Shown: positions 22,786 to 50,292 of the stretch, one piece after another
Position numbering within the stretch: the stretch's first letter is position 1
How the letters are laid out: every line of letters begins with the position of its first letter
Source: Candidatus Limnocylindrales bacterium
Lineage (GTDB): Bacteria > Chloroflexota > Limnocylindria > Limnocylindrales > CSP1-4
DNA length: 64,000 nt
Direction: 5' to 3'
NCBI GenBank assembly: GCA_038248915.1
Contig: JBBRXB010000004.1
Coordinates: 13,271-77,270, forward strand
Translations under genes and position numbers: made by a program
The notes under the pieces: model-generated
The model's database searches: none
The model's input: the letters and a program-made list of their open reading frames with translations, nothing else
Told to the model about the DNA's origin: nothing

Positions 22786-23144
22786 TCAGGCCGCGGCTGT
22801 GGCGGCCTCCGCCTCGGCGTCGTCGACGACGAGCGCCTCGTCCTCGTCATCCTCGTCGTCGTCCGACGTGCCCGGGTCGAACGCCGACTCGGGGATGGGC
22901 TCCGAGGCCGGGATCTCGCCGAGCGCCTGCGCCTGGTCCGCCAGCGAATCGGCGGCCTGCTGGGCCTCGTAGTCCTTCTTGCGCCGGCCAGACAGCATCT
23001 CGACGTGCCCGGCGACGATCTCGGTCTTCCAGTGCCGGGCGCCCTTGTCATCGTCCCACGAGCGGGTCTGGAGGCGGCCCTCGACGGCCACCTGCTGGCC
23101 CTTGCCCAGATAGCGGCCGGCGATCTCGGCCAGGCGGTCCCAGG
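22786..23144 (-). pseudogene. ssb: ssb paralogue, 3' piece (codons 60-177 of the reconstructed gene)
   Basis: Minus strand reads [50 protein letters not shown] followed by an acidic tail. SSB-like sequence stops at CCCAGG (23139-23144). The rest of track ORF 22786..23235 is not SSB-like. Confidence 0.8.
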
Positions 23145-23167
23145 TCTGACGTATACTTGGTCGTATT
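23139..23167. repeat. attL of the 12.3-kb element
   Basis: CCCAGG-tctgacgtat-ACTTGGTCGTATT. The 13-mer is the exact reverse complement of 35442-35454. Confidence 0.75.
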
Positions 23168-23196
23168 CGTCGATCCGTCAACGGAGCGAACCGAAC

Positions 23197-24462
23197 ATGA
23201 CCGCCTACGGCTACATCCGCAAGTCCGTCGTCCACGACCCGGCTCGCATGCTCTCACCCGAGATGCAAGAGGCCGCCATCAGGAAGCTCGCTGCGGCGAA
23301 CGGCGACGACGACGTGGTAATCCTCAGCGACCTCGATGTTTCGGGCCGCAAGGGCCGTTCTAGGCGCCCCGGATGGGACGAGTTGCTGCGCGCGGTCGAG
23401 GACGGCGAGTGCAAGAGCGTGTATGCGTACTCGTTGAGCCGGTTCGCCCGCAGCGTCTCGCAACTGGCCGACTTCTTCGAGTTGAGCGAGCGCCAAGGCG
23501 TCAAGGTTCGCGTCGACCGTGACCACATCGATACGTCGACCGCGACCGGGAAGCTCATAGGCAACGTCCTCGCGTCACTCGCGCAGTTCGAGGCCGATGT
23601 AGCGAGCGAGCGAGTCAAGGACGCCTTCGCGGCGAAGCGTCAGCGCGACCCCGAATGGCGCGGACCAGGAAACAGCGCATACGGCGACGAAGCGGGCGAA
23701 GACCCGCTGGTCGTGGTCGCGGCCTTCCGCGACGCGGGCAGTTTCGACGGGGCGGCGCGACTCCTCAACACGCGCGGTGTTCCAAGTCGGTTCTCGAACG
23801 GCCATCTTTGGTCCGGGAGCGTCGTGCGCGGCGTCGTCAAGCGTCACGCTCCGGATGAAGTAGGCCCGATGGTTCGTCGCGGCTCACCAGCCGGGCGCCG
23901 TTCGTTCCGCTTCTCCGGACTCGTCGAGTGCAGTACGTGTCATAAGACGCTCACCGGGTCGCGCGACACCCGGCGTGGCGACGTCCGGTATGCGTGCTCC
24001 CGAGCACGCGTGATCCCGCACGTTCGCGGTTGGGTGAACGAGTCGAAGCTGCTCCCGGTCATTGCCGCCGAAGTCGGCCACGCCGCCGTGGCGATGAAGC
24101 GACTCCAGAAGGGGAGTGCCGAGGACGACGCCGCCCTGGCCACGCTCGCCGCGAAGCGAGCGCGCGTCATCGACACGTACACGGACGGTCTCATCGACAA
24201 GGCCGAGCGCGACCGACGTCTCGCCGACATCGCCGTCGCGGAGTCGAAGCTCTCGACGCGACGATGGATCAAGCGCATCTCGCTCCCGCCCGACATCGAG
24301 ACGGGCGATCCGGCCAAGGTGAACACCTACCTCCGGAGGCTGTTCGAGCGCGTGACGGTCGACATGAGTCAGCCCGCGACGTTCGGCCCGTCGAAGTGGC
24401 TGCCGACGCTCGACTTCGAATGGCGCGACCCGTCGATGCGCGTCGAGGAGGACACCGCCTGA
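23197..24462 (+). CDS. Large serine recombinase (integrase of the 12.3-kb element)
   Basis: ATG 23197 with GGAG 10 nt upstream. Catalytic-Ser motif [27 protein letters not shown]. Cys-rich zinc ribbon [17 protein letters not shown] and a coiled-coil tail. 421 aa. Confidence 0.9.
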
Positions 24463-24482
24463 CTGTCGCCATGTAGCGACAG
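24463..24482 (+). terminator. Short hairpin after the LSR gene
   Basis: CTGTCGC-catgta-GCGACAG starts right after the TGA. No T-tract. Confidence 0.25.
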
Positions 24483-24594
24483 CACTTCATCCGGAGGGGG
24501 TTACCACCGGCCGGCGGCTTCGTTAGGTTCAACCTCGTCAGTCGTTGACGTCGCAAGGAACGACGCCGACTCGACGGGAAAGGACCCCACCGCA

Positions 24595-24978
24595 ATGACG
24601 ACCGAGAAGAAGGCCGCCCCGAAGACGTCGAAGACGGGCAACCTCGTCTTCGCCTCCGGTGCTTGTCACCACCGCAACGCCGATGGGAAGCCCGACTGCA
24701 AGAAGGCTATCTGGCTACGCGCCAGCGGCAAGCCGGTCGGCAACCTCTGTGAGACCCACGAACGCGCTTGGCGCGTCGCGGCCAGGGCTCGCTACGACGC
24801 CCGCCAGGTCGCGAAGCCCGCTGAAGTTCCCGTCGCGAAGGACGCGAAACCGCGGTCAAGCGCGAAGCCCCCGCGCGGCAAGGTTATCCCGCTGATGGCG
24901 GACGAGGCCCCGTTGGATCCGATGGAGCGCGAGATGGCAGCCGTCAAAGCGATGAAGGTCCGAAGGGTCGAAGGCTGA
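24595..24978 (+). CDS. Small basic Cys/His-containing protein, function unknown
   Basis: 127 aa. ACHHRNADGKPDCKK..LCETHERAW. High third-position GC. Sits just downstream of the LSR gene. Confidence 0.55.
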   Translation: MTTEKKAAPKTSKTGNLVFASGACHHRNADGKPDCKKAIWLRASGKPVGNLCETHERAWRVAARARYDARQVAKPAEVPVAKDAKPRSSAKPPRGKVIPLMADEAPLDPMEREMAAVKAMKVRRVEG

Positions 24979-25018
24979 CACGCTCGGCGGGGCGACGCGC
25001 AGCTCGACGGGCTCGACT

Positions 25019-25327
25019 CTACGGAGTCGGGCCCGCTTTCATGTTTGCGCGGGCGGCGTGCGCCGACCGACGGACCGCGTAGTGGTGGTCGAGAATAGCG
25101 CGGAAGCGACGCGGGTAGTCCACGCCTACATCCGGACCGGAGAAGGCCTTGTAGCTCCAGATCTTCCATTCCCTGATGTAGACCTTCTCGTTGTCCGTCC
25201 AGATGTCGTACCAGGAGCACGCCGAGCAGTTGTTCACGTCATGCGGGTGGTCCGTCGGGAGCGACTCCCATTCGGTGGGGTCGTCGTCTTCAAAAGGGCG
25301 GCCGAGGTTGACAGGAATGGTGGGCAT
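25019..25327 (-). CDS. Hypothetical protein
   Basis: ATG 25327 inside track ORF 25019..26002. 102 aa: MPTIPVNLGRPFEDDDPTEWESL..CSACSWYDIW. Only this 3' part of the long ORF has coding-like codon bias. Confidence 0.5.
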   Translation of the reverse strand: MPTIPVNLGRPFEDDDPTEWESLPTDHPHDVNNCSACSWYDIWTDNEKVYIREWKIWSYKAFSGPDVGVDYPRRFRAILDHHYAVRRSAHAARANMKAGPTP

Positions 25328-25662
25328 GCCCCCATGGTAACGGTCGCGGGGCCGTCCTCGTGACCGCCAGAGCCATTCTCCGGCCCGCTTGCGTGCGGGA
25401 CGACGCGATACGCGATAGGCGGGGAGGGGAGTCGCCGCGGCCGTTCTAGCGCCAGACAGCCGTTCACCGCGAGCCTCCTCCCCGGGTACGGGCCGGAGCG
25501 ACAACGATGGAGGTCGCGGTGATCGGTAGAAGCACGCCGGAACTGCGTCGAAACGCCGCCACGCCGATTGACTCGGACGAAGTTGCTGACTCCAACGCTG
25601 CCGTCCGCGGATGCGGGCGGTCCAGCGAGGAGAATGTCGCGCATCCTTCGGATACTGTCGAA

Positions 25663-25965
25663 CTACGCGAACCCGTCTCCGTACTGCTCGACGAGCCTGT
25701 TGAGGACCGCGCCGCGGTTGACGTACGGGTTGTCGGCCAGGACGATCAGCGCGCAAGCGACGTGCGTCCACCAGCTCGCTTCGGGCGGTCGCCCCATGCC
25801 TTGCCCGAACGTCCCCGTGCCCGGGACTCCGGCGATGGACCCGGCCTGCGCGGCTCGTGTCGTCGCGTGCCCAGTGGCCGCCGCCGGGTCGGTGTCGAAT
25901 GACCACGCCGAGTCCGCGACCATCGAGGCCGCGAACACCGCCGGGTCGACCGTGATGTCGGTCAA
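25663..25965 (-). CDS. Hypothetical protein
   Basis: 100 aa. TTG start overlaps the upstream stop. Very high third-position GC in this frame. Confidence 0.5.
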   Translation of the reverse strand: MTDITVDPAVFAASMVADSAWSFDTDPAAATGHATTRAAQAGSIAGVPGTGTFGQGMGRPPEASWWTHVACALIVLADNPYVNRGAVLNRLVEQYGDGFA

Positions 25966-26939
25966 GCCGGCACCGACGTGATCGCGTGACGGTTGTCACC
26001 ACCGGTCGCGAGACCGGGCTTCACCCCTTCGGGCTCGGCGTAGGCCGTGCCAGTTGACCGGGCGATGTCGAACGCCGCCATCTTGGCCGCCGCCGAGGCC
26101 CGGGAAGCCTCCTCCGGATGGCCGTTGCCGATGGACCCGTCGAGCGCGATGCCGAGCCCGGACGACGAGAGGACGGCGAACCGCTTCACGTCGAAGGTCG
26201 CCATCGAAGACGCGATCTCGTCCTCGACGATCTTGGCCGCTTGCCGGTTCGGGTCGGACGCTTCGAGCGCGGCCGTGACGTCAGCCTCGATGGCCGTCGT
26301 GTACCGCGCTCCCTTGTCCTTCGCGACCTCCAGAAGAAACGCCGCCCGAGCGGGTTGCCCGGCCTCCAACATCGCGGACGCTTGCTCGACGAAGGAGTCG
26401 CCATCGACTCTCGACGCGACGAGCCGAGCCCGCTCCAACTCGTCGGCCATCCGGGCCGCCGGATCGCGCTCGGTCTCGGTCTTCGCGAGGAGCGCGTTCC
26501 GCGCCTTCAGACCTTCCGTGACCGCATCGTTGAGGAGGCCGCGGGCCTTGACATCGGCCTCGCGGATCTCGGCGACGAGACGCGCCCGCTCCCGCTCGGC
26601 GAAGAGGGGAGTGATCCGCCCCTCGGCGGCTTCGACGTTGACGAGCCGAAGCTCGGCCTCGCGCTTGGCGATGCCTTCCGTGACCGCATCCAGCGCGGCC
26701 TTGAACTTGTCCTTGCTCATGTTGCCTCCGTTCAAGTTGAGCCGCTTCAATGCGGCGATTTGACCGTCGATGGCCGTGCGCCCCGCGGGCGACACGCCCG
26801 GGAGCTTCGCTTCGAGGAGCGCGACCTCCAAGTCGCGTGCCTCCGTAGGTGACAACCCGCGTTGCCACGATGACTTCGCGGGTGTTGATGCGCGGTAGGC
26901 TTCAAGTCGATGCCCGCCGACGCGGTTGGTGTGGCTCAT
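25962..26939 (-). CDS. Alpha-helical/coiled-coil hypothetical protein
   Basis: ATG 26939 preceded by AGGAGGG. An alternative internal start at 26720 (MSKDKF) also has GGAGG. Ala/Glu/Arg-rich heptad-like sequence. Confidence 0.6.
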   Translation of the reverse strand: MSHTNRVGGHRLEAYRASTPAKSSWQRGLSPTEARDLEVALLEAKLPGVSPAGRTAIDGQIAALKRLNLNGGNMSKDKFKAALDAVTEGIAKREAELRLVNVEAAEGRITPLFAERERARLVAEIREADVKARGLLNDAVTEGLKARNALLAKTETERDPAARMADELERARLVASRVDGDSFVEQASAMLEAGQPARAAFLLEVAKDKGARYTTAIEADVTAALEASDPNRQAAKIVEDEIASSMATFDVKRFAVLSSSGLGIALDGSIGNGHPEEASRASAAAKMAAFDIARSTGTAYAEPEGVKPGLATGGDNRHAITSVPA

Positions 26940-26997
26940 TTGCCCTCCTGGTTGATCGCGTCGTTGGACCGCCCGACGCTGCGGCGGTTGAGTTCCT

Positions 26998-27576
26998 TCA
27001 TGTGGTGGGGCTCCAACGCCCGGTCGCGGACGAGCCGGTGCCGTCGACGGTCCAGCGGAAGATCCCCTTGGCCGTGACAAGCTCGGGGACCGCGCCGGTG
27101 TAGGTGTCGCCGCGACGAGCGGAGCGGAGCATCGCGATGGCCGACTTGGCCTCCGTGAACGACTCCATCACCTCGGCGGCGTCGAGCTGGAACGCTTCGA
27201 GCGCGGCCAGCTTCTCCTCGACCTCGGTCAAGTCGGCCGCTCCCGGAGGCGCGACCCGATGGATGGACTCGACCATCCGCCTGATGGCCTCGACCCGCGC
27301 GGTCTTGGCCGCGGGCGACAGGGACGGGAGGTCCGCTTGAAGCCCGACCAGCAGCCCGCGGAGGAGGTCCTCATCCGTCCCTGAAGGCTCCCCGGCGGTC
27401 ACCACGGGCGGCGAAGCGGGCGGGATGACGTGCCCGTTCCGAATGTGGCGTCGCAACGCTTGCGACGACACGGCGAACGCGCCAGCAACTCGTTGAGCTG
27501 GGCGTCCCGTGTTGACCTCGGCATCGATGAGCCGTGACTGCGGATGTGAACAAATGGAGCAGACGTTCGCGCTCAC
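26998..27576 (-). CDS. HTH protein resembling actinophage small-terminase/regulator N-termini
   Basis: GTG 27576 preceded by AGGAGG. N-terminus CSICSHPQSRLIDAEVNTGRPAQRVAGAFAVSSQALRRHIRNGH (CxxC + HTH). Confidence 0.6.
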   Translation of the reverse strand: MSANVCSICSHPQSRLIDAEVNTGRPAQRVAGAFAVSSQALRRHIRNGHVIPPASPPVVTAGEPSGTDEDLLRGLLVGLQADLPSLSPAAKTARVEAIRRMVESIHRVAPPGAADLTEVEEKLAALEAFQLDAAEVMESFTEAKSAIAMLRSARRGDTYTGAVPELVTAKGIFRWTVDGTGSSATGRWSPTT

Positions 27577-27995
27577 TAGACCTCCTGTTGAACCCCGCTC
27601 ACGCGGGTGTGTGTTGAGTTGAGACCGGCCGCTCGGACGCGACCTACGTTCGGTGCGCCCGGTGTGTTCGCGCACGTTGGTGATCGCGCCTCTTCGAACG
27701 AGGGGCGTCCGGTACGGATGCACGCCTCGCGACACTTGCGCGCGTTTGTGGCTTGCGCTACCATGCGAAGCGTGGGAGTGTATACCTCGTTGAGCGTCAC
27801 GGTCATAGTTGTGCCGTCCCTCCTCTCGACGTCCGTCATCTCTCGTCCTTCGTAGGCCTATCCCATCGACGAGTGGACCAATGGTCTCCTATACGTTGGA
27901 ACACTGGTCCATTCGTCACGGTGCGTTCGCTCACGCCTTTGCGGCGTGTGCGACCGGACCGCATTCCGACGCGAGGTCTACGAGAGGTCCTCGCG

Positions 27996-29840
27996 TCAGT
28001 CCATCGGTCCATTCGTCACCTCCGGTGCGTCCGATGCGTCGTCTTCGGCGGAGCGAAGTCGGATGTCGTCGCGCCAATAGCGCCACTCGAAGCTCCGGCC
28101 GACCTTCACCTTCTCGTCGCTTCGACGAAGGAGCGTGAGCCGCATCAACTCGGCGATGCGCTTGCGGCCGTCGCCGATGCCCCACAAGACTTCGAGTTGA
28201 GCCGACGACATGCCGTCGCCGTCGCGCGGCACCCCATCGACCCACGAGAGAAGCGCCGCGTTCCGCTCGTTGGAGGAGTCCACGACCGAGTAGACGTGAC
28301 TCGCCGTGTTGTACTCGACGAGCATCGAGGTCGTTTCGAGGATCCGGCCGCGAACCGTGAGCCATCGTCGCGAGTCGAGGGGGTCCGCCGGGTTGTGGTA
28401 GGTCAGCTCGGCTTGCACGTCGCACGCCGCCGCGATGGCCCCCGAGCCTCGCGTCGCCTCACCGGCGATGCCGCCGCCCTTGCGCGTGTGGTGAACGAGG
28501 ATCACCGCCGCGTCGCGGTCAGCGAGCGCGTGTCGGATCGTCTCGACCGCGGCGGTCGTCTCGCCCGCGTCGTTCTCGTTCTCGATGCCCGCCCAGACGG
28601 CGAGCGTGTCGATGATGACGACGGCCCCGTCGTGGTTCGACACCCACCGCGACGCCGCAGCGAGGGAGTCCGCCAGACCCCAGCCCGCGCGCACGGCATC
28701 CGACCGTTGGACGACCTCCATCGCCGAGAGGCCGAATGCCTTGGTCTTGGTGACGACCGGGACGCCGTATTCCTCGGTCATCAGCAGGAGAGGCGTCCCG
28801 GGACGGACATCGAACTCGCCCAGGAACTTCTCGCCCGTCTCGGCGCATCGCGCCAGATGTCCCAGGAGGGTTGACTTGCCGCCCTTCGGCGGACCGGCGA
28901 CGACCGTCACGCCGCCGGAGTAGGCGACCGGGTAGGCGACCCACGGCACGGTGCTCGGCGTCTCGGCCACGATTTGGGCGATGGGCTTTACCACCTTGCC
29001 GACGTTGGACTCGGGGACGTCGACGTTTCCCGCGAGCACCCACTCGCGCCAGTCCTTCCCGGTCCCCGTGAGCGAGTCGTAGTCGGGCGGCACGATGCGC
29101 GCGGCGAACAGGCCCGCCGTCATCGCGTTCTCCATCGCCTTGGCCGCGCCCTTCTGCCCGGCGTCATCTGCGTCGTAGGCGACGAATACGCTCTCGACGC
29201 CGCGACGCGCCATCGAGCGGAAGTCGCTCACACTCGGCACACCCGACGCAGATCCGGCGGAGTACGCCATCTCGTAGCCGATGCCCCGCAGAGCGATGGC
29301 GTCCGACTCGCCTTCGGTGAGGAGGATGTCGACCGGCATCGCGTCGTCAAGCGGCCAGATGGCCGGGTTGGGTGAGCCGGCGGGCGACCAGCGCCGCTCG
29401 GACGAGCCCGCTTGGCGATGCTTGGCGACGCCCAGACCCGGGAAGTCGTGCGACACCCAACCATCCGCCGTCGCCGAAAGAGGGAAGTCGTCGAGGAACG
29501 CTCGTTCCACGCCGCAATAGGCGGCGTACCACCCGAGCGGGTCGGCCTTCGCGTCGGCCGGGATGGGCTTCGCCGTTGCGGACCGGCGCTTGGTCCGTGT
29601 GATGCGGATGGGCGTCGCCTCGGCGGCTTCGAGGTTCTCGACGACTTGGCGGTAACCCGCGCCACACACCGGGTTGAGGCACTTCACGAGCGTCTTGCCG
29701 GTCTTCTCCGTGATGTGGAGTGAGTCCGAGCCACCGTGAACCGGACACTCGGCGTGAACGTCACGCCGCCCGCTCGTCGAGTCATTCCAACGCGCAATAT
29801 CGAGTCGCTCTGCAAGCCAGTCGAAGTCGTGGTCGCTCAT
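27996..29840 (-). CDS. Primase-helicase fusion (zinc finger + Toprim + RepA/DnaB-like P-loop ATPase)
   Basis: Zinc finger ECPVHGGSDSLHI..CLNPVCG. Toprim LLTEGESDAIAL..AYDADDAGQKG. Walker A GPPKGGKST, VVIIDTLAVW, LVHHTRKGG. Start at ATG 29840 is uncertain; the track ORF extends to 30152. Confidence 0.85.
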   Translation of the reverse strand: MSDHDFDWLAERLDIARWNDSTSGRRDVHAECPVHGGSDSLHITEKTGKTLVKCLNPVCGAGYRQVVENLEAAEATPIRITRTKRRSATAKPIPADAKADPLGWYAAYCGVERAFLDDFPLSATADGWVSHDFPGLGVAKHRQAGSSERRWSPAGSPNPAIWPLDDAMPVDILLTEGESDAIALRGIGYEMAYSAGSASGVPSVSDFRSMARRGVESVFVAYDADDAGQKGAAKAMENAMTAGLFAARIVPPDYDSLTGTGKDWREWVLAGNVDVPESNVGKVVKPIAQIVAETPSTVPWVAYPVAYSGGVTVVAGPPKGGKSTLLGHLARCAETGEKFLGEFDVRPGTPLLLMTEEYGVPVVTKTKAFGLSAMEVVQRSDAVRAGWGLADSLAAASRWVSNHDGAVVIIDTLAVWAGIENENDAGETTAAVETIRHALADRDAAVILVHHTRKGGGIAGEATRGSGAIAAACDVQAELTYHNPADPLDSRRWLTVRGRILETTSMLVEYNTASHVYSVVDSSNERNAALLSWVDGVPRDGDGMSSAQLEVLWGIGDGRKRIAELMRLTLLRRSDEKVKVGRSFEWRYWRDDIRLRSAEDDASDAPEVTNGPMD

Positions 29841-29991
29841 CAGCCCATTCACTTTCAGCAGCCCGATACGCGGTAGGTAGGGACGGCGGGCGGGCTGAGG
29901 ACCCGCCGCCCCGTAGAGGACCCGTCCGAGTTCGCGGGTTCGGACGGCGTGAACATACGCGACCCGCCGGATCGCGCGTGTCGCTGGCCGG

Positions 29992-30216
29992 TCATAGCCC
30001 GGTCCCGCAGTTGGGGCAGACCGCGCCCTCGGTGAGCGACACGGCGTGAAGGTCGCATCCGTGCCGGGCGCAGACATCGCGACCGTCGAGGACGGGCTCG
30101 GTACACGGCTCGATGGACCCGCGCGGGCCGCGCGCCGGGTCGGCCCGTTCATCGGGGCTGTTCGGCCAGCCGACGCCGGTGTGGACGTAGCCAGTGCAAG
30201 CGAGACGGTCCATCAA
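29992..30216 (-). CDS. Small Cys-rich (zinc-ribbon-like) protein
   Basis: 74 aa. Start overlaps the XRE gene stop. High third-position GC. C-terminal CPNCG. Confidence 0.5.
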   Translation of the reverse strand: MMDRLACTGYVHTGVGWPNSPDERADPARGPRGSIEPCTEPVLDGRDVCARHGCDLHAVSLTEGAVCPNCGTGL

Positions 30217-30545
30217 GCCGTCTTCTGGGCGGCGCTCGCCGCCTTCTTCCGCGCGGCGTAGATGACCGCCAGGTCGGCCTCACCTTCGGAGGCCATCTTG
30301 GCTCGACTCGCGGCGATGCCCTCGATGGCTTCGAGGATCTTGATGACGTTCTTCGCCTTGATGTTCACGGCGCGCGCGCGGCGCTCGACCATCGAGACGT
30401 AGCCCTGCGTGACGAACAGCTTTTGGGCCAACTCTGCTTGGCTGACCGCGTTGACCTTCCGGTATGCGGTGACCTCGGCGAGATCGTAGACCGGACCGTA
30501 AGCAGCTTCGCCGACGGGCTGCGGTCGGGTGATGTTGTTGCTCAT
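30213..30545 (-). CDS. XRE/Cro-CI-type HTH transcriptional regulator
   Basis: 110 aa. HTH VSQAELAQKLFVTQGYVSMVER. First gene of the minus-strand replication module. Confidence 0.8.
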   Translation of the reverse strand: MSNNITRPQPVGEAAYGPVYDLAEVTAYRKVNAVSQAELAQKLFVTQGYVSMVERRARAVNIKAKNVIKILEAIEGIAASRAKMASEGEADLAVIYAARKKAASAAQKTA

Positions 30546-30552
30546 GATGTGA

Positions 30553-30592
30553 TAATACGTCTACACATATACCACGGCGAATGTAGGTATTA
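30553..30592. promoter_or_regulatory. Candidate operator (imperfect inverted repeat) in an A/T-rich divergent promoter region
   Basis: TAATACGTCTACA (30553-30565) and TGTAGGTATTA (30582-30592). On the minus strand a TATTAT hexamer lies 6 nt before the XRE ATG, suggesting a leaderless transcript. On the plus strand there is a TGtGATAAT extended -10. Confidence 0.4.
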
Positions 30593-30842
30593 CATCGAGA
30601 GCCCGCAAGACGGTCACGGACGCCGCTTGCGCGTGATCGCGCGTCGTCGAGTCGCCTCAGGCCGGACGGGCCGGAGAACGAGCCGGAGAGTCACGGGCGC
30701 GATAGGTCGAACCGTCCGCGTAAGTCGCAGCTAAGCGCTGATGCCTACTCTCCGAGATGGGCCGCGCTCCGCGCCCGGAAGGTCGATCTCGGGCTCGCCC
30801 GACCAGCCCGTTCCGGGGCGTCGCGGCCCTTATGCTTGAGGC

Positions 30843-31871
30843 ATGGCAGGGAAGGAGTCGTTGGTCCGGGCTAGCCGGGCCAAGAACGACGAGTTCTACA
30901 CCCAGTTGGTCGACGTCGAGGCCGAACTACGGCTCTACCGCGACCAGTTCCGCGGCAGGGTCGTGCTCTGCAACTGCGACGACCCGTATGAGTCTGCCTT
31001 CTTCAAGTATTTCGCGATGAACTTCAATCATCTCGGCCTGAAGAAGCTCATCACTACGAGCTACAGCGGGAGCCCGATCACCGGCGAGCAACTCCGGTTG
31101 CTGGACGTAGCCGGGATGCCCGACAACGCCCCCGAGAAGCCAGCCTACCGGGTCGAGATCAGCGAAGTTCCGGACGCCAACGAGGACGGGGCTACCGACC
31201 TACAGGACGTCGAGTACCTGCTGAAGCACGAGCGCAACGTCGTCAGCCTCTTGGCGGAGGGCGGAGACTTTCGCTCCGCTGAGTGCGTCGCTTCGTTAGA
31301 CGAGGCCGACATCGTTGTCACGAACCCACCGTTCTCGCTGTTTCGCGAGTACGTTGGCCAACTCGTGGGGCATGGCAAGCAGTTCCTCATCCTCGGCAAC
31401 CTCAACGCCATCACGTACAAGGAAATCTACTCACTCATAAGGGACGGACAGCTCTGGCTCGGTCACCGGACCGGCGGGGAAAAGTGGTTCCGCGTGCCCG
31501 ACGACTACGGCCACACGACCGACAAGGGGAAGATCAAAGTGGAGGCCGGGGTGAGGTACCTAGCCATGAAGAACATGGCGTGGTTCACCAACCTGGACAC
31601 CACAAAGCGTCATGAGGCCATGACGCTGTACAGGCACTACACGCCTGACGAGTACCCGACCTACACGAACTATCCGGCCATCGAGGTCGCCAAGGTTTCG
31701 GACATCCCGATGGACTACAGCGGGGCCATGGGCGTCCCGATCACCTTCCTGGACAAGTACAACCCGGAGCAGTTCGAGATCCTGGGGTTCCGCAAAGGCG
31801 ATGACGGCAAGGACCTCTCGATCAAGGGGAAGAGCTTGTACTTCCGAATCCTCATCCGGGCCCGTCCATGA
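30843..31871 (+). CDS. N6-adenine DNA methyltransferase (EcoRI-methylase-like family)
   Basis: 342 aa. N-terminal KNDEFYT. Catalytic motif IV VVTNPPFSLF. Confidence 0.8.
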   Translation: MAGKESLVRASRAKNDEFYTQLVDVEAELRLYRDQFRGRVVLCNCDDPYESAFFKYFAMNFNHLGLKKLITTSYSGSPITGEQLRLLDVAGMPDNAPEKPAYRVEISEVPDANEDGATDLQDVEYLLKHERNVVSLLAEGGDFRSAECVASLDEADIVVTNPPFSLFREYVGQLVGHGKQFLILGNLNAITYKEIYSLIRDGQLWLGHRTGGEKWFRVPDDYGHTTDKGKIKVEAGVRYLAMKNMAWFTNLDTTKRHEAMTLYRHYTPDEYPTYTNYPAIEVAKVSDIPMDYSGAMGVPITFLDKYNPEQFEILGFRKGDDGKDLSIKGKSLYFRILIRARP

Positions 31872-32962
31872 AGATCGACCTGAAGGCGATCACGGTCCGT
31901 GAGGTCGCCGAGGGCTATGGCGACAACGACGAGGAAGGTGTCGTCGGATACGCCGGGCGGCTCGACATCCGGCCCAAGTACCAGCGGGAGTTCGTCTACG
32001 ACGAGAAGAAGCGGAACGCCGTTATCGACACCATTCGCAAGGGCTTCCCGCTCAACGTCATGTACTGGGTGGTCACGGACGAAGGCACCTTCGAGGTGAT
32101 GGACGGCCAGCAGCGGACCATCTCCTTCTGCCAGTACGTGAACGGCGACTTCTCGGTCCCGGTAGACGGCCACCCGATGGCGTTCCACAACTTGTCGAAG
32201 ACGCTCCAGGACCAGATCCTCGACTACACCCTGATGGTCTACCACTGCTCCGGCAGTGACCAGGAGAAGCTCGACTGGTTCCGCATCATCAACATCGCGG
32301 GCGAACGCCTCACCGAGCAGGAGCTGCGAAACGCGGTCTACACAGGACCGTGGCTCTCCCACGCCAAGACGATCTTCTCCAAGTCCAACTGCGCGGCGTA
32401 CCTCCTCGGCAACAAGTACGTCAGCGGCTCGCCAATCCGGCAGGAGTACCTGGAGACCGCTATCTCGTGGCTATCGGGCGGGAAGGTCGAGCAGTACATG
32501 TCGGCCCATCAGCACGACCCGAACGCCAACGAGCTGTGGGCCTACTTCCAAGCGGCGATCGCGTGGGTGACGCTGACCTTCACCACGTACCGCAGCGAGT
32601 TGAAGGGCATCGACTGGGGCACCCTCTACAACCAGTTCAAGGACGGTCTCTTCGACACCGACCAGCTGGAAGGTGAGATCAAGGTGCTGATGATCGACGA
32701 CGACGTCACGCGCAAGAAGGGCGCCTACCAGTACGTCCTGACCCACGACGAGAAGTACCTCGCGATCCGCCAGTTCACGTCAGGGATGAGACGCGCTGCG
32801 TACGAGCGACAGGGCGGAATCTGCCCCGTCTGCAAGAAGCACTATGAGATTGAGGCGATGGAGGCCGACCACATCACGCCGTGGTCGAAGGGCGGACGGA
32901 CCAGCGCGGAGAACTGCCAGATGCTGTGTCTCGAGGACAACCGGCGCAAAGGTGCGGTCTAG
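31868..32962 (+). CDS. DUF262 (ParB/GmrSD N-terminal-like) + HNH endonuclease fusion
   Basis: ATG overlaps the methyltransferase stop (ATGA). DUF262 hallmark VMDGQQRT. C-terminal HNH CPVCKK..EADHITPWSKGGRTSAENCQMLCLEDNRRKG. Confidence 0.8.
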   Translation: MKIDLKAITVREVAEGYGDNDEEGVVGYAGRLDIRPKYQREFVYDEKKRNAVIDTIRKGFPLNVMYWVVTDEGTFEVMDGQQRTISFCQYVNGDFSVPVDGHPMAFHNLSKTLQDQILDYTLMVYHCSGSDQEKLDWFRIINIAGERLTEQELRNAVYTGPWLSHAKTIFSKSNCAAYLLGNKYVSGSPIRQEYLETAISWLSGGKVEQYMSAHQHDPNANELWAYFQAAIAWVTLTFTTYRSELKGIDWGTLYNQFKDGLFDTDQLEGEIKVLMIDDDVTRKKGAYQYVLTHDEKYLAIRQFTSGMRRAAYERQGGICPVCKKHYEIEAMEADHITPWSKGGRTSAENCQMLCLEDNRRKGAV

Positions 32963-32976
32963 GCTGAACTGAGCGT

Positions 32977-32986
32977 CCCCCCCCCC
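32977..32986. repeat. C10 homopolymer
   Basis: Ten consecutive C starting 15 nt after the HNH gene stop. A C6 run follows at 33018-33023. Confidence 0.9.
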
Positions 32987-33183
32987 GGCCTCGGCGAGCG
33001 CGTCGTCGGAAGAGCGGCCCCCCGCGCTCCGCCCCGGAGGAACGATCTCGGGCATGGCCTGACCAGCCCACTCCGGGGGCGACGCGGTCCAAGGAGTCGA
33101 GCAAGGGTCGCCGCCCGAACCGCACGGAACGGACGTAGGACTCCGTGTTCATGCCGTTCCCGCTCCTCCCAGCGCCAACTCGC

Positions 33184-33213
33184 TTGACGACCGCGGCCGC
33201 GCCATGCTATATC
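33184..33213 (+). promoter_or_regulatory. Candidate promoter of the three-gene cassette
   Basis: TTGACG (33184-33189), 18-nt spacer, TATATC (33208-33213). Confidence 0.3.
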
Positions 33214-33349
33214 GAGCTCATCAATCCGTCACGCCACCATACCGGCGGCGACGGCCAACATGGCAAGACCGCGCGGTCGTGCGTGTGGACGATATGCGGG
33301 TCGAACATGAGCTGGCACGGCCCGCAGATGGAACGGAGTAGTGGAGTCC

Positions 33350-33964
33350 ATGAGTGAACCGGAACCGAGCAAGGAGTCGGTCGCCGACATCCTTGCCGAA
33401 GCCATTGCCGCCGTGAATGCGGCCGGTGTCCCAGCCGAGCTGAAGGAGGCGGCCTTCTCAAAGGCGGTCGATGTCATCATGGCGAGGCGTACGGCCGAGA
33501 CGGCCGGCAGCATGGGGACGGCGGGCGTTGCCCATGCCCCGGCCGTCACGCCCGGCGCGACGGCGCTCACCGAGGGGGACGTGGTCGGACTCATCGCCGC
33601 TCGGCTCCGCCTCGACCGCGAGGTGGTCGGCGAGGTGTTCGATGAGACGGACGGGAAGCTCGACGTCATCGTGCCGCCGCGCAAACTGGCCGCGGGCAAG
33701 GCTCCCGCCGTAAAGCAGCTTGCCCTCCTTGTGGCCTCAGCCCGGCAGGCTGCGGGCATCGAGGAGTGGACGGACGCCGACGACATCCGCCAGTTCGTGG
33801 AGGAGTTCAAGAGGTACGACCAGGCCAACTTCGCATCGACACTCAAGCAGATGGACGACATCTTCCGTATCAAGCAGACGGGACGCAAGATCACCGTCAG
33901 GTTGGGGCGGCCCGGTTGGGACCGGGCGGCCGAGCTGGTCACCACGCTCGCGGGGGAGGGATAA
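33350..33964 (+). CDS. Cassette protein 1, unknown function (C-terminal winged-helix-like module)
   Basis: ATG 33350 with GGAG 11 nt upstream; the track ORF begins at 33341. 204 aa. C-terminus ..KQMDDIFRIKQTGRKITVRLGRPGWDRAAELV. Confidence 0.6.
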   Translation: MSEPEPSKESVADILAEAIAAVNAAGVPAELKEAAFSKAVDVIMARRTAETAGSMGTAGVAHAPAVTPGATALTEGDVVGLIAARLRLDREVVGEVFDETDGKLDVIVPPRKLAAGKAPAVKQLALLVASARQAAGIEEWTDADDIRQFVEEFKRYDQANFASTLKQMDDIFRIKQTGRKITVRLGRPGWDRAAELVTTLAGEG

Positions 33965-33966
33965 CC

Positions 33967-34629
33967 ATGACGGACGAGACGAAGGCTACGGCCTCGGTCG
34001 TCGCCGAGCCCGACGATGACGACGCCGAGCTTGAGGCGATGGGCGCGATCACGAAGGCGCTCAAGCCGCTGACGCCGGCTACGCGGCAGCGCGTCATCGG
34101 TTGGGCTGCCGGCAAGTACGGCGCGGCTATCGCGTCAGCAGCGACCGGACTTCCTGGTCTTGCAGTCGGCGGACTCGGCGGCCGGGCCGCTTCGGAGTTG
34201 CCCGTCGCGGCCAAGAAGCGGCGCAAGACGGTCCGAAAGAACGGCGTCGGGGCCGTCGCGCCTGCGGTCGGCAACAAGCCGAAGGGAGCGCCGGGTCACG
34301 ACAAGACCCTGAACCTCCACCCGGCGGACAGGCAGTCGTTCAAAGACTTCGTGGGCGAGAAGAAGCCGCGGGACAACTTCGTGGAGCACAACGTCGTGGC
34401 GGTCTACTGGCTGGGGCAGACTGCCGAGATCACGGACGTGACGACGGACATGGTCTTCACGTGCTATCGGGGCGTGTCGTGGAAGCTCCCGGGCGATCTT
34501 CGGAACAGCCTCGCCAAGACGGCCCACGACAAAGGCTGGCTGGACACGAAGGACTCCGACGACATCAAGATCACACCATCAGGGCTGAACTTCGTTGAAC
34601 GTGACCTCCCGCCGAAGACCAAGGCGTAG
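33967..34629 (+). CDS. Cassette protein 2, unknown function (acidic N-terminus, basic KKRRK linker, C-terminal winged-helix-like module)
   Basis: ATG 33967, 2 nt after the upstream TAA. 220 aa. C-terminus NSLAKTAHDKGWLD..IKITPSGLNFVERDL. Confidence 0.65.
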   Translation: MTDETKATASVVAEPDDDDAELEAMGAITKALKPLTPATRQRVIGWAAGKYGAAIASAATGLPGLAVGGLGGRAASELPVAAKKRRKTVRKNGVGAVAPAVGNKPKGAPGHDKTLNLHPADRQSFKDFVGEKKPRDNFVEHNVVAVYWLGQTAEITDVTTDMVFTCYRGVSWKLPGDLRNSLAKTAHDKGWLDTKDSDDIKITPSGLNFVERDLPPKTKA

Positions 34630-35443
34630 GCGCCCTGCGGTCGCCATCGCGGCGGCCGCCCCGACCACGCCGACGATCACTCCGGCGACCGCGCTCGTTG
34701 CGGTCCCGCCGTCGCTGCGCGACCCCTTGATCGCCGCGCTCAACGAAATCGCCACGAACTTCGCCGCTCACAAGTGGGAGCCGTCCGAGTTGAACGGGGG
34801 CAAGCTCTGCGAGACGGCCTACACCATCCTCCGAAGCCATGTGGACGGGACATGGGCCGCCAAGCCGAACAAACCGCGTGACTTCGTGACCGCGTGTCGC
34901 GACTTCGAGAACGCGGACAAGACGAAGTTCCCGCAGTCTGTTCGGGTCACGACTCCACGCTTGCTGATGGCGCTCTACGAGATCCGCAACAACCGCGGCG
35001 TTGGCCACGCCGGTGGCGACGTAGACGCCAACCACATGGACGCCACTCTCGTGTTGACCGGGGCGAAGTGGGTCGTCGCGGAGTTGATCCGCATCTTCCA
35101 CGGCGTGACTACGGCGGAGGCGACGGCCATAGTTGACGCACTTGTCGAGCGGGTCGTCCCGACCATCTGGACCATTGGTGCAACCCGTCGGGTGCTAGCA
35201 ACCGGCCTGTCGATGAAGGACAAGACCCTGCTCTTGCTCTACGCGTCGGCGGATTGGGTCAGCGAAGCGGACCTCGTCGGCGCCATCGAGCACTCGAACG
35301 CCTCCGTCTACCGACGAGATGTACTCGCGACGGCCCACAAGGACCGGCTCATCGAGTACGAAGCCACGAACCGCCGGGCGCACATCAGCCCGCTGGGTGT
35401 GGACTACGTGGAGAAGCGACTCGGGGCGCACCTCGTCGCCTAA
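34595..35443 (+). CDS. Cassette protein 3: HEPN-like (Abi_C/AbiJ-type RNxxGxxH motif) N-domain + winged-helix C-domain
   Basis: LMALYEIRNNRGVGHAGG (motif at 34985-35008). C-terminus VLATAHKDRLIEY..AHISPLGVDYVEKRL parallels cassette protein 2. Start uncertain (TTG 34595, GTG 34601 or a later TTG). The TAA stop overlaps the attR 13-mer. Confidence 0.6.
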   Translation: MNVTSRRRPRRRRPAVAIAAAAPTTPTITPATALVAVPPSLRDPLIAALNEIATNFAAHKWEPSELNGGKLCETAYTILRSHVDGTWAAKPNKPRDFVTACRDFENADKTKFPQSVRVTTPRLLMALYEIRNNRGVGHAGGDVDANHMDATLVLTGAKWVVAELIRIFHGVTTAEATAIVDALVERVVPTIWTIGATRRVLATGLSMKDKTLLLLYASADWVSEADLVGAIEHSNASVYRRDVLATAHKDRLIEYEATNRRAHISPLGVDYVEKRLGAHLVA

Positions 35444-35470
35444 TACGACCAAGTGGACGCGAAACCCAGG
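35442..35470. repeat. attR of the 12.3-kb element
   Basis: AATACGACCAAGT-ggacgcgaaa-CCCAGG. Mirror image of attL: 13-mer, 10-nt spacer, core. Confidence 0.75.
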
Positions 35471-35561
35471 CGACGACGGGATGGTACTCCGAGCGCTCCT
35501 TGCCGCCACCGATGAACTCATTGCTCGCCACGGTGAACGTCGTCATTGACTCAGTTACCCC
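35465..35561 (-). pseudogene. ssb: ssb paralogue, middle piece (codons 29-60)
   Basis: Minus strand reads G-VTESMTTFTVASNEFIGGGKERSEYHPVVAW. Bounded by ACCCC (35557-35561) and CCCAGG (35465-35470). An in-frame TGA lies just upstream at 35571-35573. Confidence 0.75.
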
Positions 35562-36847
35562 ATCGGTACATCATGTCGGCGTGAGACGAGCCGTCGCGTA
35601 TCTCCGCAAGTCGAGGGTTGACCCGGGCACGCGTGACGCGTCATGGGAGACCCAGGAGGCCAAGGTTCGCGCCTTGGCCGCCCGCCACGGGGACACCGAC
35701 CTTGAGCTAATGAGTGATTGGGGTCGGTCTGGACGGGGAGAGAAGACCCGTCTACGACCCGAGTATCGGCGCCTCCGGGGGATGATCGAGGCAGATGAGG
35801 TATCCGTCCTCTACAGCTACAGTCTGAGCCGGCTGGCGCGGTCACTCACAGAGTACGCATCGCTCGCCGAGTTGTGCCGGGAGCACGGTGTCCAGGTTCG
35901 GCTCGACAAAGAGGGGGAATTCGACTACGGCTCAGCGTCCGGTCGATTCACGGTCGGCATCTTGGCGTTGCTTGCCCAAATGGAAGCTGAATTGGCGCAG
36001 GAGCGCGCACGCGACACCGTCCAGGCGCGGCGTGCCCGCGGCGATCACATTGGGTCAGCCGGCTACGGGAAACGCCTCCACAACGGAACGTTAGAGGATG
36101 ATCCGCGCGAGAGCGTCGAAGTCGTGGCGGCTGCGTATCGGGAGGCCGGAGGATTCGCCGGGGCCGCCCGCATCTTGAACACCAAAGAGGTGCGTTCGAA
36201 GTTCGGCAAGAAGTGGAGCGGGACCACGGTCCGCCGCGTCCTAACCACCGCGGCGCCTCAGGAGTTGGCGGGACGGCCCGTGGAGGCCCGTGTCAAGCAG
36301 CGCGGCACGTTCACGCTGTCACGCATTCTCCGTTGTCCCTGCGGGCAGATCATGACCGGGCGACACGGCCGCGGCTCCCGCAAATACGGACTCTACGGCC
36401 CCTACGCGAGCTACCAATGCTACCGGGGCCGATACGAGTCGAACCACCCGCGGCCATACATGGTCAGCGAACGCGAGATCTTGCCGTGGGTTGTGGCCGA
36501 GGCCGACCGACTCCGCGTACCACATCACAAGTTCGATTCCGACGCCGATCCGGATCGGCGGACGGCTCTGGAAGAACGACGCAGACGCGTTATCGACAAC
36601 TACGAGGACGGTGTGATCGAGAAGTCCGAACGCGATGCAAAGCTCGCGGCGATCATCACCGAGCTGGAAGGTCTCGCGGCCGCCGAGCGTGCCGACGTCA
36701 TCCCGCCAACGATCGATTGGACGTGGGAGCCGGCCATCATCAACGAGGTATTGCGAGCGCTCTGGAACGTTGTGGAACTCGGGCCCGACCTCCGCCCAGT
36801 CCGCGCGACCTGGTTGGTGCCGGAGTGGCGAGCGTGAGACCCACCCC
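35557..36847. mobile_element. 1.29-kb insertion consisting only of a large serine recombinase gene
   Basis: Identical ACCCC at 35557-35561 and 36843-36847, in the same codon phase of ssb. 1286 bp between equivalent positions. The LSR ORF fills 35581-36837. Confidence 0.65.
35581..36837 (+). CDS. Large serine recombinase (second paralogue)
   Basis: GTG 35581 is the first start inside the insertion. VAYLRKSR catalytic Ser, YSYSLSRLARS, GSASGRF. Zinc ribbon CPCGQIMTG..YQCYRGR. 418 aa. Colinear with the first LSR by eye. Confidence 0.85.
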   Translation: MRRAVAYLRKSRVDPGTRDASWETQEAKVRALAARHGDTDLELMSDWGRSGRGEKTRLRPEYRRLRGMIEADEVSVLYSYSLSRLARSLTEYASLAELCREHGVQVRLDKEGEFDYGSASGRFTVGILALLAQMEAELAQERARDTVQARRARGDHIGSAGYGKRLHNGTLEDDPRESVEVVAAAYREAGGFAGAARILNTKEVRSKFGKKWSGTTVRRVLTTAAPQELAGRPVEARVKQRGTFTLSRILRCPCGQIMTGRHGRGSRKYGLYGPYASYQCYRGRYESNHPRPYMVSEREILPWVVAEADRLRVPHHKFDSDADPDRRTALEERRRRVIDNYEDGVIEKSERDAKLAAIITELEGLAAAERADVIPPTIDWTWEPAIINEVLRALWNVVELGPDLRPVRATWLVPEWRA

Positions 36848-36931
36848 GATGGGTGTATAATGCCACTCTATCTGCCCGCGTCGCGCGACCCATCTGATGG
36901 GACTAACCGTCGGACCAGCGATTGGACCCAC
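36843..36931 (-). pseudogene. ssb: ssb paralogue, 5' piece (codons 1-29)
   Basis: GTG 36931, then MGPIAGPTVSPIRWVARRGQIEWHYTPIG-V. The ..YTPxG matches the SSB beta1-beta2 region. The N-terminal similarity is weak. Confidence 0.6.
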
Positions 36932-36963
36932 GCGGTCAACGGAACAAAGCTCGGTCAGGTCGT

Positions 36964-37012
36964 GACCCGGTTTCTTTAGGCGAACTGTGTTCGCCCGCGA
37001 GAAAGCCGGGTC
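36964..37012. promoter_or_regulatory. Nested imperfect palindrome between the ssb start and the divergent small gene
   Basis: GACCCGG-TTTCT-..-GGCGAAC-tgt-GTTCGCC-..-AGAAA-GCCGGGTC. Ends 5 nt before the ATG at 37018. Confidence 0.4.
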
Positions 37013-37017
37013 TCTTC

Positions 37018-37266
37018 ATGAATCGAGAACCTAAACACGTTCGGGACCTACAGCGGCAAGGCGGGAGGGAGGGGGCGAGGCGACGTTGGGGCTCGCACGT
37101 GCCTCAAACGGTCAGGATGGGTGATCTCAGCTCCGAGCAGCGGCGTCTGGTCGTCGCCCTCATCGAGGCAGCACGCGCCTCGCGAGCAGAGGCCGCCTCG
37201 GCGACCATTGAGACGGCCGAGACGGCCGAGACGGAGGGTCACGGCAATGACCGCCCGACAGACTGA
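37018..37266 (+). CDS. Small hypothetical protein
   Basis: 82 aa: MNREPKHV..GDLSSEQRRLVVALIEAARASR. Contains a 9-bp tandem repeat (gagacggcc) encoding ETAETAETE. Start uncertain. Confidence 0.45.
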   Translation: MNREPKHVRDLQRQGGREGARRRWGSHVPQTVRMGDLSSEQRRLVVALIEAARASRAEAASATIETAETAETEGHGNDRPTD

Positions 37267-37531
37267 GGCTAGCAGACAGCACGTCGGTCGCTTCGAGCAG
37301 ACCTGCCCGGCTTGCGGGATCTCGGAAGGCGCTGGTTCGTATTGCACGTCCTGCCTGTGCCCGATTTCCGCGGTTCACTGGCACGCCGCGATCCGCTCGG
37401 CTAGGCAGATTGCCACTACTGAGTGGATGACGGCTCACAGACCAAGGATTCGCCGAGAGCCGGGGCCTACAGCCCACAAGCCTCGGACTCGCACGCCTGC
37501 GATCCCGCGCCGCCAGAGGCATCGTCGATGA
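37247..37531 (+). CDS. Small zinc-ribbon protein
   Basis: 94 aa. CPACG..CTSCLC. Overlaps both neighbours (operon-like). Confidence 0.45.
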   Translation: MTARQTEASRQHVGRFEQTCPACGISEGAGSYCTSCLCPISAVHWHAAIRSARQIATTEWMTAHRPRIRREPGPTAHKPRTRTPAIPRRQRHRR

Positions 37532-37785
37532 GCATCAAATTGATCAGCCGTGCCTGGGAGGTGAACGGGATCAGCATGGCCGCGAAATTGCTCCTGATTG
37601 CTCTGGCGGACCACGCCCACGACGACGGCGGGAGCTGCTACCCGTCCTCCCAAAGGTTGGCAAATCGTCTCGGTTGCTCACGGCGGCACATCTGGACCCT
37701 ACTCCAAGAGCTCGAGCGGGCCGGCCTCGTGGCCAGACGTTCGGGAGGCCATCGCTCGACCAACCAGTACACCTTGCGGCTTTGA
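37528..37785 (+). CDS. Helix-turn-helix protein (HTH_36/DnaD-like; replication or regulatory)
   Basis: ATG overlaps the upstream TGA. 85 aa. AKLLLIALADHAHDDGGSCYPSSQRLANRLGCSRRHIWTLLQELERAGLV. Confidence 0.65.
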   Translation: MSIKLISRAWEVNGISMAAKLLLIALADHAHDDGGSCYPSSQRLANRLGCSRRHIWTLLQELERAGLVARRSGGHRSTNQYTLRL

Positions 37786-37795
37786 AACGCCGAGC

Positions 37796-37897
37796 TGTCA
37801 CGTGACAACAAGGTGACAGTAGGAACGGCAGTTCCTGCCGCTACCAAACGACAGTTCCTACTCACTGGGAGCCCCGGTTCCCACCCTTAGTAGGAAT
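37796..37897. repeat. Iteron-like repeat cluster plus 12-bp palindrome (candidate origin or operator array)
   Basis: TGTCACGTGACA (37796-37807). AGTAGGAAC (37818-37826) and its complement GTTCCTACT (37854-37862). AGTAGGAAT (37889-37897). CAGTTCCT twice (37829-37836, 37852-37859). Confidence 0.5.
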
Positions 37898-38257
37898 GTG
37901 AGTGCCCGCCAACCAATAGAACCGCAAATGAACCGTTATTAGCCGTCGGGTCCGGTTCCGGAGTCTTGGGACTCCGTCACCGGATGAATGGTCGGAGGAT
38001 GAACTGGAAATCCTCGGGATTCGACGGACCTTGGAACAGCAGACCTCGAATCGTCTAGGGGCATGGTGTCATGACCCAGCCGATCGTACCGAGAACACAT
38101 TCTCAACCTCGTCGTCGTAGTGGTTGATAACCTCGATCGCGACCCCGCCCGCTATTGGCTCGGCGCCGATCCGCTCCGGGGTTGTCATCCGGCCTCGAGT
38201 CGCATCCTCAAGCTCCGACCACGCATCTGAGGGGGCTACACTGACTGGCCACGGAGG

Positions 38258-39295: not shown

Positions 39296-39363
39296 GTACG
39301 CCCGTCATCATCTTAGGCATATGGCCCGCTGTTTAGGATCGGGTCGCGGCGAATATTCGCCAG

Positions 39364-41453: not shown

Positions 41454-41522
41454 CCACTCCCGCTCGGCCGTGGCACTCATGCGATAGAGCCGGGGCGACG
41501 CCATCGGCCCGCCGGCGCACTG

Positions 41523-42650: not shown

Positions 42651-42792
42651 CCCCATCGCCCGGCCCGAGCAATCTTGCGTTGGCCTGGCTCGGCGGTTCG
42701 GGGCGTTGCTCGCCCTTGCATGCGGCTCCTGGGCGTGGCGGACCGGGTATGATCCTTCATGGTGCCCCGGCCTGTGACACCATGCCCGTAGC

Positions 42793-44436: not shown

Positions 44437-44454
44437 GAGAGTCGGCGTGTCCCA

Positions 44455-48010: not shown

Positions 48011-48039
48011 GAGACCGCGTTCCTGCGCTTGCTGGTCGG

Positions 48040-50290: not shown

Positions 50291-50292
50291 CG

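Follow-up and report, generated by a model that had tools for sequence, protein, structure and literature searches.

The gene for a single-stranded DNA-binding protein (ssb) on the minus strand of a 64,000-nucleotide stretch of Candidatus Limnocylindrales DNA (contig JBBRXB010000004.1; hereafter the window, 66.7% G+C) is broken into pieces by two recombinase-bearing insertions, termed E1 and E2. The account favoured here, given a probability of about 0.85 on the strength of sequence comparison, is that a chromosomal ssb was hit by two integrative elements, each entering by way of its own large serine recombinase at its own bacterial attachment site (attB). E1 (12.3 kb) would have crossed over in CCTGGG, at codons 50-51, and E2 (9.9 kb) in ACGACGTTCA, at codons 26-28. 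Both enzymes would come from one family that diversified in Candidatus Limnocylindria (Chloroflexota), each subclade of which probably recognizes a different short, highly conserved stretch of ssb, of radC or of a transposase gene. The ssb copy in this genome is presumably dead, and a third, unexplained break at codon 17/18 appears to have taken its start codon and promoter. Catalysis of these insertions by the two recombinases is presumed, as is the order of events.

A first-pass annotation of the window had described a 177-codon ssb cut into three in-phase pieces, A, B and C, by two serine-recombinase insertions. Two of its claims are borne out directly: two separate insertions break up ssb on the minus strand, the pieces numbered 2, 3 and 4 below being colinear with intact orthologues, and there is one serine recombinase per insertion, encoded at 23197-24462 and 35581-36837.

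The ssb pieces and their junctions

The pieces, the elements between them and the DNA formerly taken for piece A are as follows:

22786..23144 (-): ssb piece 4, codons about 50-168 plus the stop codon, contiguous with conserved downstream chromosome
23139..23144: E1 core copy, CCCAGG (CCTGGG in ssb orientation), at the recombinase-proximal junction
23145..35464: element E1, 12,326 bp with one core copy
35465..35543 (-): ssb piece 3, codons 26-51, with an E1 core copy at 35465-35470 and an E2 core copy at 35534-35543
35544..45415: element E2, 9,882 bp with one core copy
36845..36931 (-): piece A of the first-pass annotation, not ssb; intergenic DNA within E2, just after the recombinase stop codon
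45416..45451 (-): ssb piece 2, codons 18-28 (SLASDKSVTTF), with an E2 core copy at 45416-45425

Piece 4 matches an intact SSB at 89% over 118 amino acids (tblastn), and piece 3 has 92% nucleotide identity to an intact locus (L001 10076-10154). Piece 2 came to light by tblastn and short-word blastn with the orthologues' 5' end; 32 of its 36 nucleotides are identical to the same intact locus (L001 10050-10085), and it carries the substitution G22D at a position that is invariant among 14 aligned orthologues. The E1 crossover core, CCTGGG, lies at codons 50-51, and the join across it is in frame and colinear with ten aligned orthologues (...EYHPVVAW/DRLAEIAG...). This is the junction previously drawn between pieces B and C, and both the assignment of piece C (22786-23139) to ssb and the interpretation of CCCAGG as a serine-integrase crossover hold. 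The E2 core, at codons 26-28, is the 10-mer that pieces 2 and 3 have in common, ACGACGTTCA; its plus-strand form, TGAACGTCGT, is found at only two sites in the window, 35534 and 45416, so that the second junction is 35534-35543 joined to 45416-45425. In-silico removal of E1 (12,326 bp) and E2 (9,882 bp) yields a 151-codon open reading frame (ORF) that runs from codon 18 to the stop codon, colinear with the orthologues and without a start codon. The two target sites are about 70 bp apart in ssb, and an 80-bp mini-fragment of the gene is thereby stranded between E1 and E2. The earlier observation of two hits close together in one gene therefore stands, with about 70 bp in place of about 95 bp and with a different breakpoint in place of that between A and B.

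The uninterrupted allele is common. A protein search with the joined product returned thousands of SSBs, the best of them 78-93% identical and 144-220 amino acids long. Intact orthologues have 156-170 amino acids, and more than 80 uninterrupted homologues are colinear across the B/C junction; piece A has no counterpart in the aligned orthologues. Both sites are empty in intact alleles at three loci (L001-L003) and at 80 metagenome loci. The latter are the best 80 matches of an ssb alignment scan, which keeps its top matches only and is not a measure of site occupancy; all are intact, with no recombinase nearby, which is why the uninterrupted allele is taken to be common. At the DNA level no intact relative exceeds 86% identity. 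That pieces 2, 3 and 4 line up in order with intact orthologues, and that alleles exist with both sites empty, argues for two insertions into a once continuous gene.

The version with pieces A, B and C in phase, in which a 1.3-kb recombinase-only insertion separates A from B and excision restores a 177-codon ssb, is almost certainly wrong. Re-derivation from the minus strand returned the coordinates and translations of the three pieces, and both shared cores, as originally given, and ACCCC does occur at both proposed A/B breakpoints. Moreover, A+B+C joined scores 78.0 bits against the Pfam SSB profile (PF00436; residues 23-109, profile positions 16-104), a match that spans both junctions. Yet B+C alone scores 77.0 bits (profile positions 24-104), so that piece A adds only 1 bit, and piece A alone gives no SSB match against Pfam. 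Its sequence, MGPIAGPTVSPIRWVARRGQIEWHYTPIG, has no counterpart in the N-terminus of the orthologues (MNKVLLTGRLTRDPEMRSLASGKNV), which start with MNKVLLTGRLTRDPEMRSLASGKNVTTFTVASNEF in an alignment of ten; piece A lies 8 nt past the stop codon of the E2 recombinase. ACCCC occurs 55 times in the window, and some shared 5-mer is expected in about 32% of random pairs of 20-nt windows. Because piece A is without an orthologous counterpart, lies inside E2 and is bounded by a 5-mer that is common by chance, the A/B junction is a chance reading. The true fragment, with its 10-bp core, is at 45416-45451, and the same recombinase-proximal E2 arm recurs at two other loci, L044 and L045, described below. 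As judged by alignment to intact orthologues, the three-piece version is already refuted.

It follows that E2 is not an insertion of about 1.3 kb but one of 9.9 kb (35544-45415), that no 177-codon product exists, and that of the in-phase crossovers once proposed the ACCCC junction is not genuine, whereas both true junctions are in phase. Piece B is ssb from 35543 downward, while its first five codons, VTESM (35558-35544), are element DNA. Two readings were rejected: shared 5-mer or 6-mer cores as sole evidence of a junction, chance sharing being too frequent, and E2 as a 1.3-kb recombinase-only element, in view of the fragment at 45416-45451.

Pieces 2+3+4 score 81.9 bits against PF00436, over profile positions 20-104, as compared with 115.9 bits over positions 1-104 for an intact orthologue (P0001). 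The rebuilt window gene thus does not encode a complete OB-fold in one ORF. The first codons of intact ssb are GTGAACAAGGTCCTSCTCACGGGNCGCCTCAC. The orthologues are under strong conservation but do not have the PF tip: in 78 of 78 intact orthologues (L001-L004, L048-L127) an acidic tract is followed by an end in ...[AV]AA, and none ends in PF; the window copy ends in ...AATAAA. The rpsF-rpsR context was seen at none of the loci examined. The lack of a PF tip is compatible with a specialized SSB; paralogue, the first-pass annotation's term for the gene, would be a tentative label.

To the left of ssb the chromosome (1-22785) is syntenic with intact loci L001-L004, with genes for a Na/Ca exchanger, a tetrapyrrole methylase, NAD synthase, a CN_hydrolase nitrilase-family hydrolase and peptide ABC components; L001 10149-20513 corresponds to the window from 23144 down to 12962.

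Two side observations concern the E2 core. An element-derived ATG at 35544-35546 stands directly before it, in frame with ssb, and at L044 (6249-6659) the equivalent ATG yields an annotated 136-aa SSB without the first 25 residues. In addition, CACGACGTTCGGTG at 46041-46054, 614 nt from the right end of E2, closely resembles the E2 core region in inverted orientation; it may be what remains of an att half-site, or the likeness may be due to chance.

The recombinases, their attachment sites and the elements

The recombinase genes lie at the left ends of the elements:

23197..24462 (+): E1 large serine recombinase, 421 aa (P0121); Pfam Resolvase, 103 bits, plus a zinc-ribbon match
35581..36837 (+): E2 large serine recombinase, 418 aa; Pfam Resolvase, 88 bits, plus Recombinase and zinc-ribbon matches

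Aligned from end to end, the two proteins have 37% identity. Each gene reads inward and starts about 40-50 nt from the junction, which is the usual arrangement of an integrase next to its phage-type attachment site (attP). Both catalytic domains score far above the cut-off of 23.3 bits for the resolvase domain (PF00239), and Ser10, in the motif Y-x-R-K-S, is nearly invariant in a 22-sequence family alignment. The C-terminal parts are recognized with weak scores: for E2, 21.4 bits to PF07508 (cut-off 21.1) and 21.8 bits to PF13408 (cut-off 25.3), and for E1, PF13408 only, also at 21.8 bits. Nevertheless C245, C248, C267 and H275 are invariant in the same alignment, and the family profile matches the catalytic domains of Bxb1-type and TP901-1 integrases, its positions 233-398 also matching the C-terminal regions of the SPbeta, A118 and phiC31 integrases (E 1e-6 to 2e-3). 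The possession by both recombinases of a resolvase domain and an integrase-like C-terminal region with invariant Cys and His residues argues for the two-insertion account.

The attachment sites point the same way, each element having an integrase beside attP and a short identical core without a long target duplication, with perfect arms in E1 and partly symmetric arms in E2. When the ends of E1 are joined, the rebuilt attP reads AATACGACCAAGT-ATACGTCAGA-CCTGGG-TTTCGCGTCC-ACTTGGTCGTATT, with 10-nt spacers on each side of the core; this 52-bp site (AATACGACCAAGTATACGTCAGACCTGGGTTTCGCGTCCACTTGGTCGTATT) has perfect 13-bp inverted arms that are symmetric about the TG of the core, and the recombinase ATG is 52 nt from the core. 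The attP of E2 is GGGGTAACTGAGTCAATGACGACGTTCAGTGGCGCAGTTTGTTCG; its recombinase-proximal arm, GGTAACTnnGTCAAT, is conserved in L044 and L045, and its distal arm, GTGryGCAGTT, is common to a further locus, L004. On the chromosomal side, where the attB sites would span about 50 bp around ssb nt 149-154 (E1) and nt 76-85 (E2), 84 intact genes show almost no variation in the attB DNA, GTCACGACGTTCAC and CCTGGGAC. The perfect E1 arms, the conservation of att arms across independent assemblies and the near-invariance of attB all favour site-specific insertion.

The remaining recognizable genes of the elements are these:

27996..30152 (-): E1 Toprim + AAA_25 primase-helicase (replication module)
30843..32962 (+): E1 type II restriction-modification pair
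30843-31871: EcoRI-type methylase of the pair (Pfam; PADLOC MTase_II, 400 bits)
31868-32962: GmrSD_N/HNH endonuclease of the pair (Pfam; PADLOC REase_II, 485 bits)
40932..44436 (+): E2 cargo (Pfam)
40932-41453: E2 RadC
41523-42650: E2 tyrosine recombinase, between radC and the methylase-Mrr fusion gene
42793-44436: E2 methylase-Mrr fusion (Pfam; PADLOC MTase_II)

E1 carries in addition a helix-turn-helix (HTH) regulator and several unknown proteins, and E2 encodes a SHOCT-domain protein. E1 backbone proteins are common to E1-like elements at four other loci (L005, L008, L009 and L021). By Pfam and PHROGs, the genes recognized in E1 and E2 are confined to replication, regulation and restriction-modification; neither contains virion or conjugation genes, and viral contigs yielded no relatives of either, the E1 primase-helicase included. 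A prophage identity was rejected for want of virion genes, and the elements are best regarded as small integrative islands whose cargo serves replication and defence.

Automatic annotation conceals the arrangement. The gene caller's version of the E2 recombinase (P0241, 441 aa) starts at an ATG at 35512, on the strand opposite to ssb piece 3, and so extends over the stranded ssb fragment, making the split gene invisible.

Recurrence in related genomes

The recombinase alignment, run against species-representative genomes, picked out 33 loci, almost all of them in metagenome-assembled genomes of Candidatus Limnocylindria or other Chloroflexota. Truncated ssb lies directly beside a related recombinase in 15 other loci, at four target regions within the gene. 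The break is at about codon 50-51 in L005-L009 and L021, whose recombinases are 67-75% identical to that of E1; here a conserved arm, TACGACyAAnTATACG, is followed by CCTGGG, of which L021 retains only TGGG. It is at about codon 43-46 in L026 and L030, and at codon 84 in L016, L022 and L018, the last in the opposite orientation; in L027 codons 1-30 of ssb are kept. As a side observation, L026 contains a second, inverted ssb fragment (12811-12915, codons 50-86), 5.6 kb past the recombinase that adjoins ssb codons 43-165, which suggests rearrangement between the att sites of different elements.

Closer relatives of the E2 recombinase were found by protein search at two loci. In L044 (NCBI GCA_038914895.1) a recombinase 80% identical to that of E2 adjoins ssb from codon 24 onward, with the arm GGTAACTACGTCAATG meeting ACAACGTTCACC at the junction; ssb is unbroken across the E1 site, only the E2 site being occupied. 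In L045, a JGI metagenome contig, the recombinase is 66% identical to that of E2 and the same double insertion is present as in the window, an ssb mini-fragment of codons 26-52 lying between an E2-type arm and an E1-type distal arm, TGGGA followed by TTGACGCCTAATTGGTCGTACT. That one locus has the E2 site alone occupied, and another both, supports two separate insertions.

Sister subclades of the recombinase family have other targets. Some adjoin truncated radC (L031 2779-3039, L033 5683-5943, L046 9498-10040, L047 3534-4085), the 3' part and the 5' part both being seen, in opposite orientations. Others adjoin an IS256-type transposase gene (L017, L023, L025, L028, L029) or lepA (L024, L037). 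In a neighbour-joining tree each target class has its own subclade. The truncated ssb beside a recombinase in 15 loci, together with one subclade per target class, is a further reason to prefer two integrase-mediated insertions.

The L004 locus represents a different outcome, an intact ssb flanked by two partial copies of itself. The 5' copy (promoter plus codons 1-28), a 190-bp direct repeat, has 91% identity to the beginning of the intact gene (4760-4949 / 6780-6970) and ends exactly at ACGACGTTCA, the E2 core; the 3' copy (codons about 92 to the end, plus the terminator) is 77% identical (7166-7440 / 8245-8509). From these partial copies it follows that an insertion at these sites can come with a replacement end that keeps ssb whole. 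The replacement ends suggest that the gene matters to the host.

The missing 5' end, known systems and meaning

To the right of E2 the gene is incomplete, and the following features take its place:

45452..50292: unrelated DNA in place of the ssb 5' end, with two IS110-family transposase genes
47271-48287: IS110-family transposase, partial
48333-49562: IS110-family transposase, complete

Homology to ssb stops at 45451/45452 (codon 17/18); the frame runs on to an in-frame stop at 45506-45504, with no start codon after it. The first 17 codons were not found anywhere in the 64-kb window by tblastn (word size 2) or blastn-short (word size 7). Beyond 45452 come 1.8 kb without recognizable genes, the two IS110-family genes and then housekeeping genes. 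The break has no recognizable site or recombinase, and there is no third serine recombinase in the window; transfer RNA (tRNA) and Rfam scans of the window gave no matches, tblastx of 45452-50300 against related loci gave compositional noise only, and an exact-protein look-up for DNA past the window returned only a 10.9-kb Logan contig, without ssb. A third insertion ending outside the window, an IS-associated deletion and an assembly mis-join are all possibilities for the break.

Two side observations concern this flank. A Logan contig (SRR19962012) encodes an ABC-transporter protein identical to that at window 61182-62678, and the region 57000-64000, with LacI and sugar-ABC-transporter genes, has about 61% G+C, as against about 69-70% at 48-55 kb.

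A mis-joined contig, for example one joined at the IS110 copies, would make the loss of the 5' end, or even the insertions, unreal. The source is a metagenome-assembled contig (208,571 bp) with two IS110-family copies at 47271-49562 and, as noted, no recognizable site or recombinase at the break. Such an artefact is nonetheless unlikely: the E1 and E2 junction types recur in independent NCBI, ENA and JGI assemblies, and the break is 1.8 kb from the nearest IS copy, so that a repeat-mediated mis-join does not explain it.

Intervening elements such as skin in sigK, SPbeta in spsM and those of nifD, fdxN and hupL in heterocyst cyanobacteria carry a recombinase and split their gene in phase, and cases of a single gene holding several elements are known from cyanobacterial nif and Bacillus sporulation genes. 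By analogy with skin, SPbeta, nifD and comK active lysogeny, E1 and E2 might leave precisely under some condition and rebuild a working ssb. In favour of this, each junction is precise and in phase, neither recombinase gene is damaged, ssb fragments next to elements remain in good condition at many loci, and the orthologues are, as noted, strongly conserved. Programmed excision is even so quite improbable; neither it nor terminal differentiation is in evidence here. The window contains neither the first 17 codons nor the promoter, so that removal of both elements cannot rebuild the gene, contrary to the first-pass expectation that recombination within the cores would restore an uninterrupted ORF; and the L004 insertion keeps ssb intact by the opposite strategy, a replacement end.

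Several points weigh against two integrase-mediated insertions as well. A scan of viral contigs for the rebuilt E1-type and E2-type patterns gave 0 matches to an excised attP, and no recombination directionality factor was recognized; both results also speak against programmed excision. The ssb 5' end is missing, and the history to the right of E2 is not understood. The arms of the E2 attP are weakly symmetric (AACTGAG ... CGCAGTT; AACTGnG), and E2 may, given the tyrosine recombinase inside it, be a composite of two elements.

The mechanism in the favoured account, two insertions by separate integrases, is standard large-serine-integrase integration into a conserved ORF. Like the integrases that insert conservatively within conserved ORFs (Bxb1 in groEL1, A118 in comK, SPbeta SprA in spsM, and phiC31 and TP901-1), those of E1 and E2 have a resolvase domain and a zinc-ribbon/coiled-coil C-terminal region, and their genes lie beside an attP of about 50 bp with inverted arms and a short core in common with attB. 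They differ in being short (418-421 aa), with Pfam C-terminal scores at or below threshold; the elements are without virion genes, the host belongs to an uncultured Chloroflexota class, and the target is ssb, with several sister subclades at different positions in this one gene. With respect to elements that integrate in tRNA genes and supply a replacement target end, the likeness is to L004, with its 190-bp copy of the ssb promoter and codons 1-28; E1 and E2 in the window carry no replacement end and truly break the gene.

The first-pass annotation knew of no description of ssb as a target of such recombinases, but disruption of an ssb-family gene by mobile elements is on record: prophages at att_ssbB are reported to disrupt ssbB in Streptococcus mitis and S. 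pneumoniae, in work on how transformation is blocked (bioRxiv 10.1101/2024.08.13.607808, citing Denapaite 2010). Those are complete prophages in a known competence-specific paralogue, whereas E1 and E2 are small non-viral islands belonging to a set with four target regions and double occupancy. No description of a serine recombinase targeting ssb was found in the literature searched. The novelty lies in the host lineage, in the target and in the use by sister recombinase subclades of four distinct target regions in one 500-bp gene.

A broader, rather unlikely proposal is that the radiation of these recombinases specifically targets genes for incoming or single-stranded DNA (a non-canonical SSB without a PF tip, and radC), insertion disabling a recombination- or transformation-type pathway that would otherwise delete the elements. 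If so, the conflict over "chromosomal curing" that has been suggested for prophages at comYC and ssbB in pneumococci would extend to an uncultured class of soil Chloroflexota, and elements with a replacement ssb end, as in L004, would represent a cooperative alternative.

For annotation, the lesson is a warning, as a stranded ssb fragment was masked by the gene caller's extended E2 recombinase. The two elements add two new predicted serine integrases with attB and attP sequences, from a family with subclade-specific short sites that would be raw material for orthogonal genome-integration tools and for the study of target change. A small, strongly conserved gene thus appears as a crowded landing pad, with four target regions within about 250 bp and recurrent double occupancy, at which insertions either break the gene or restore it.

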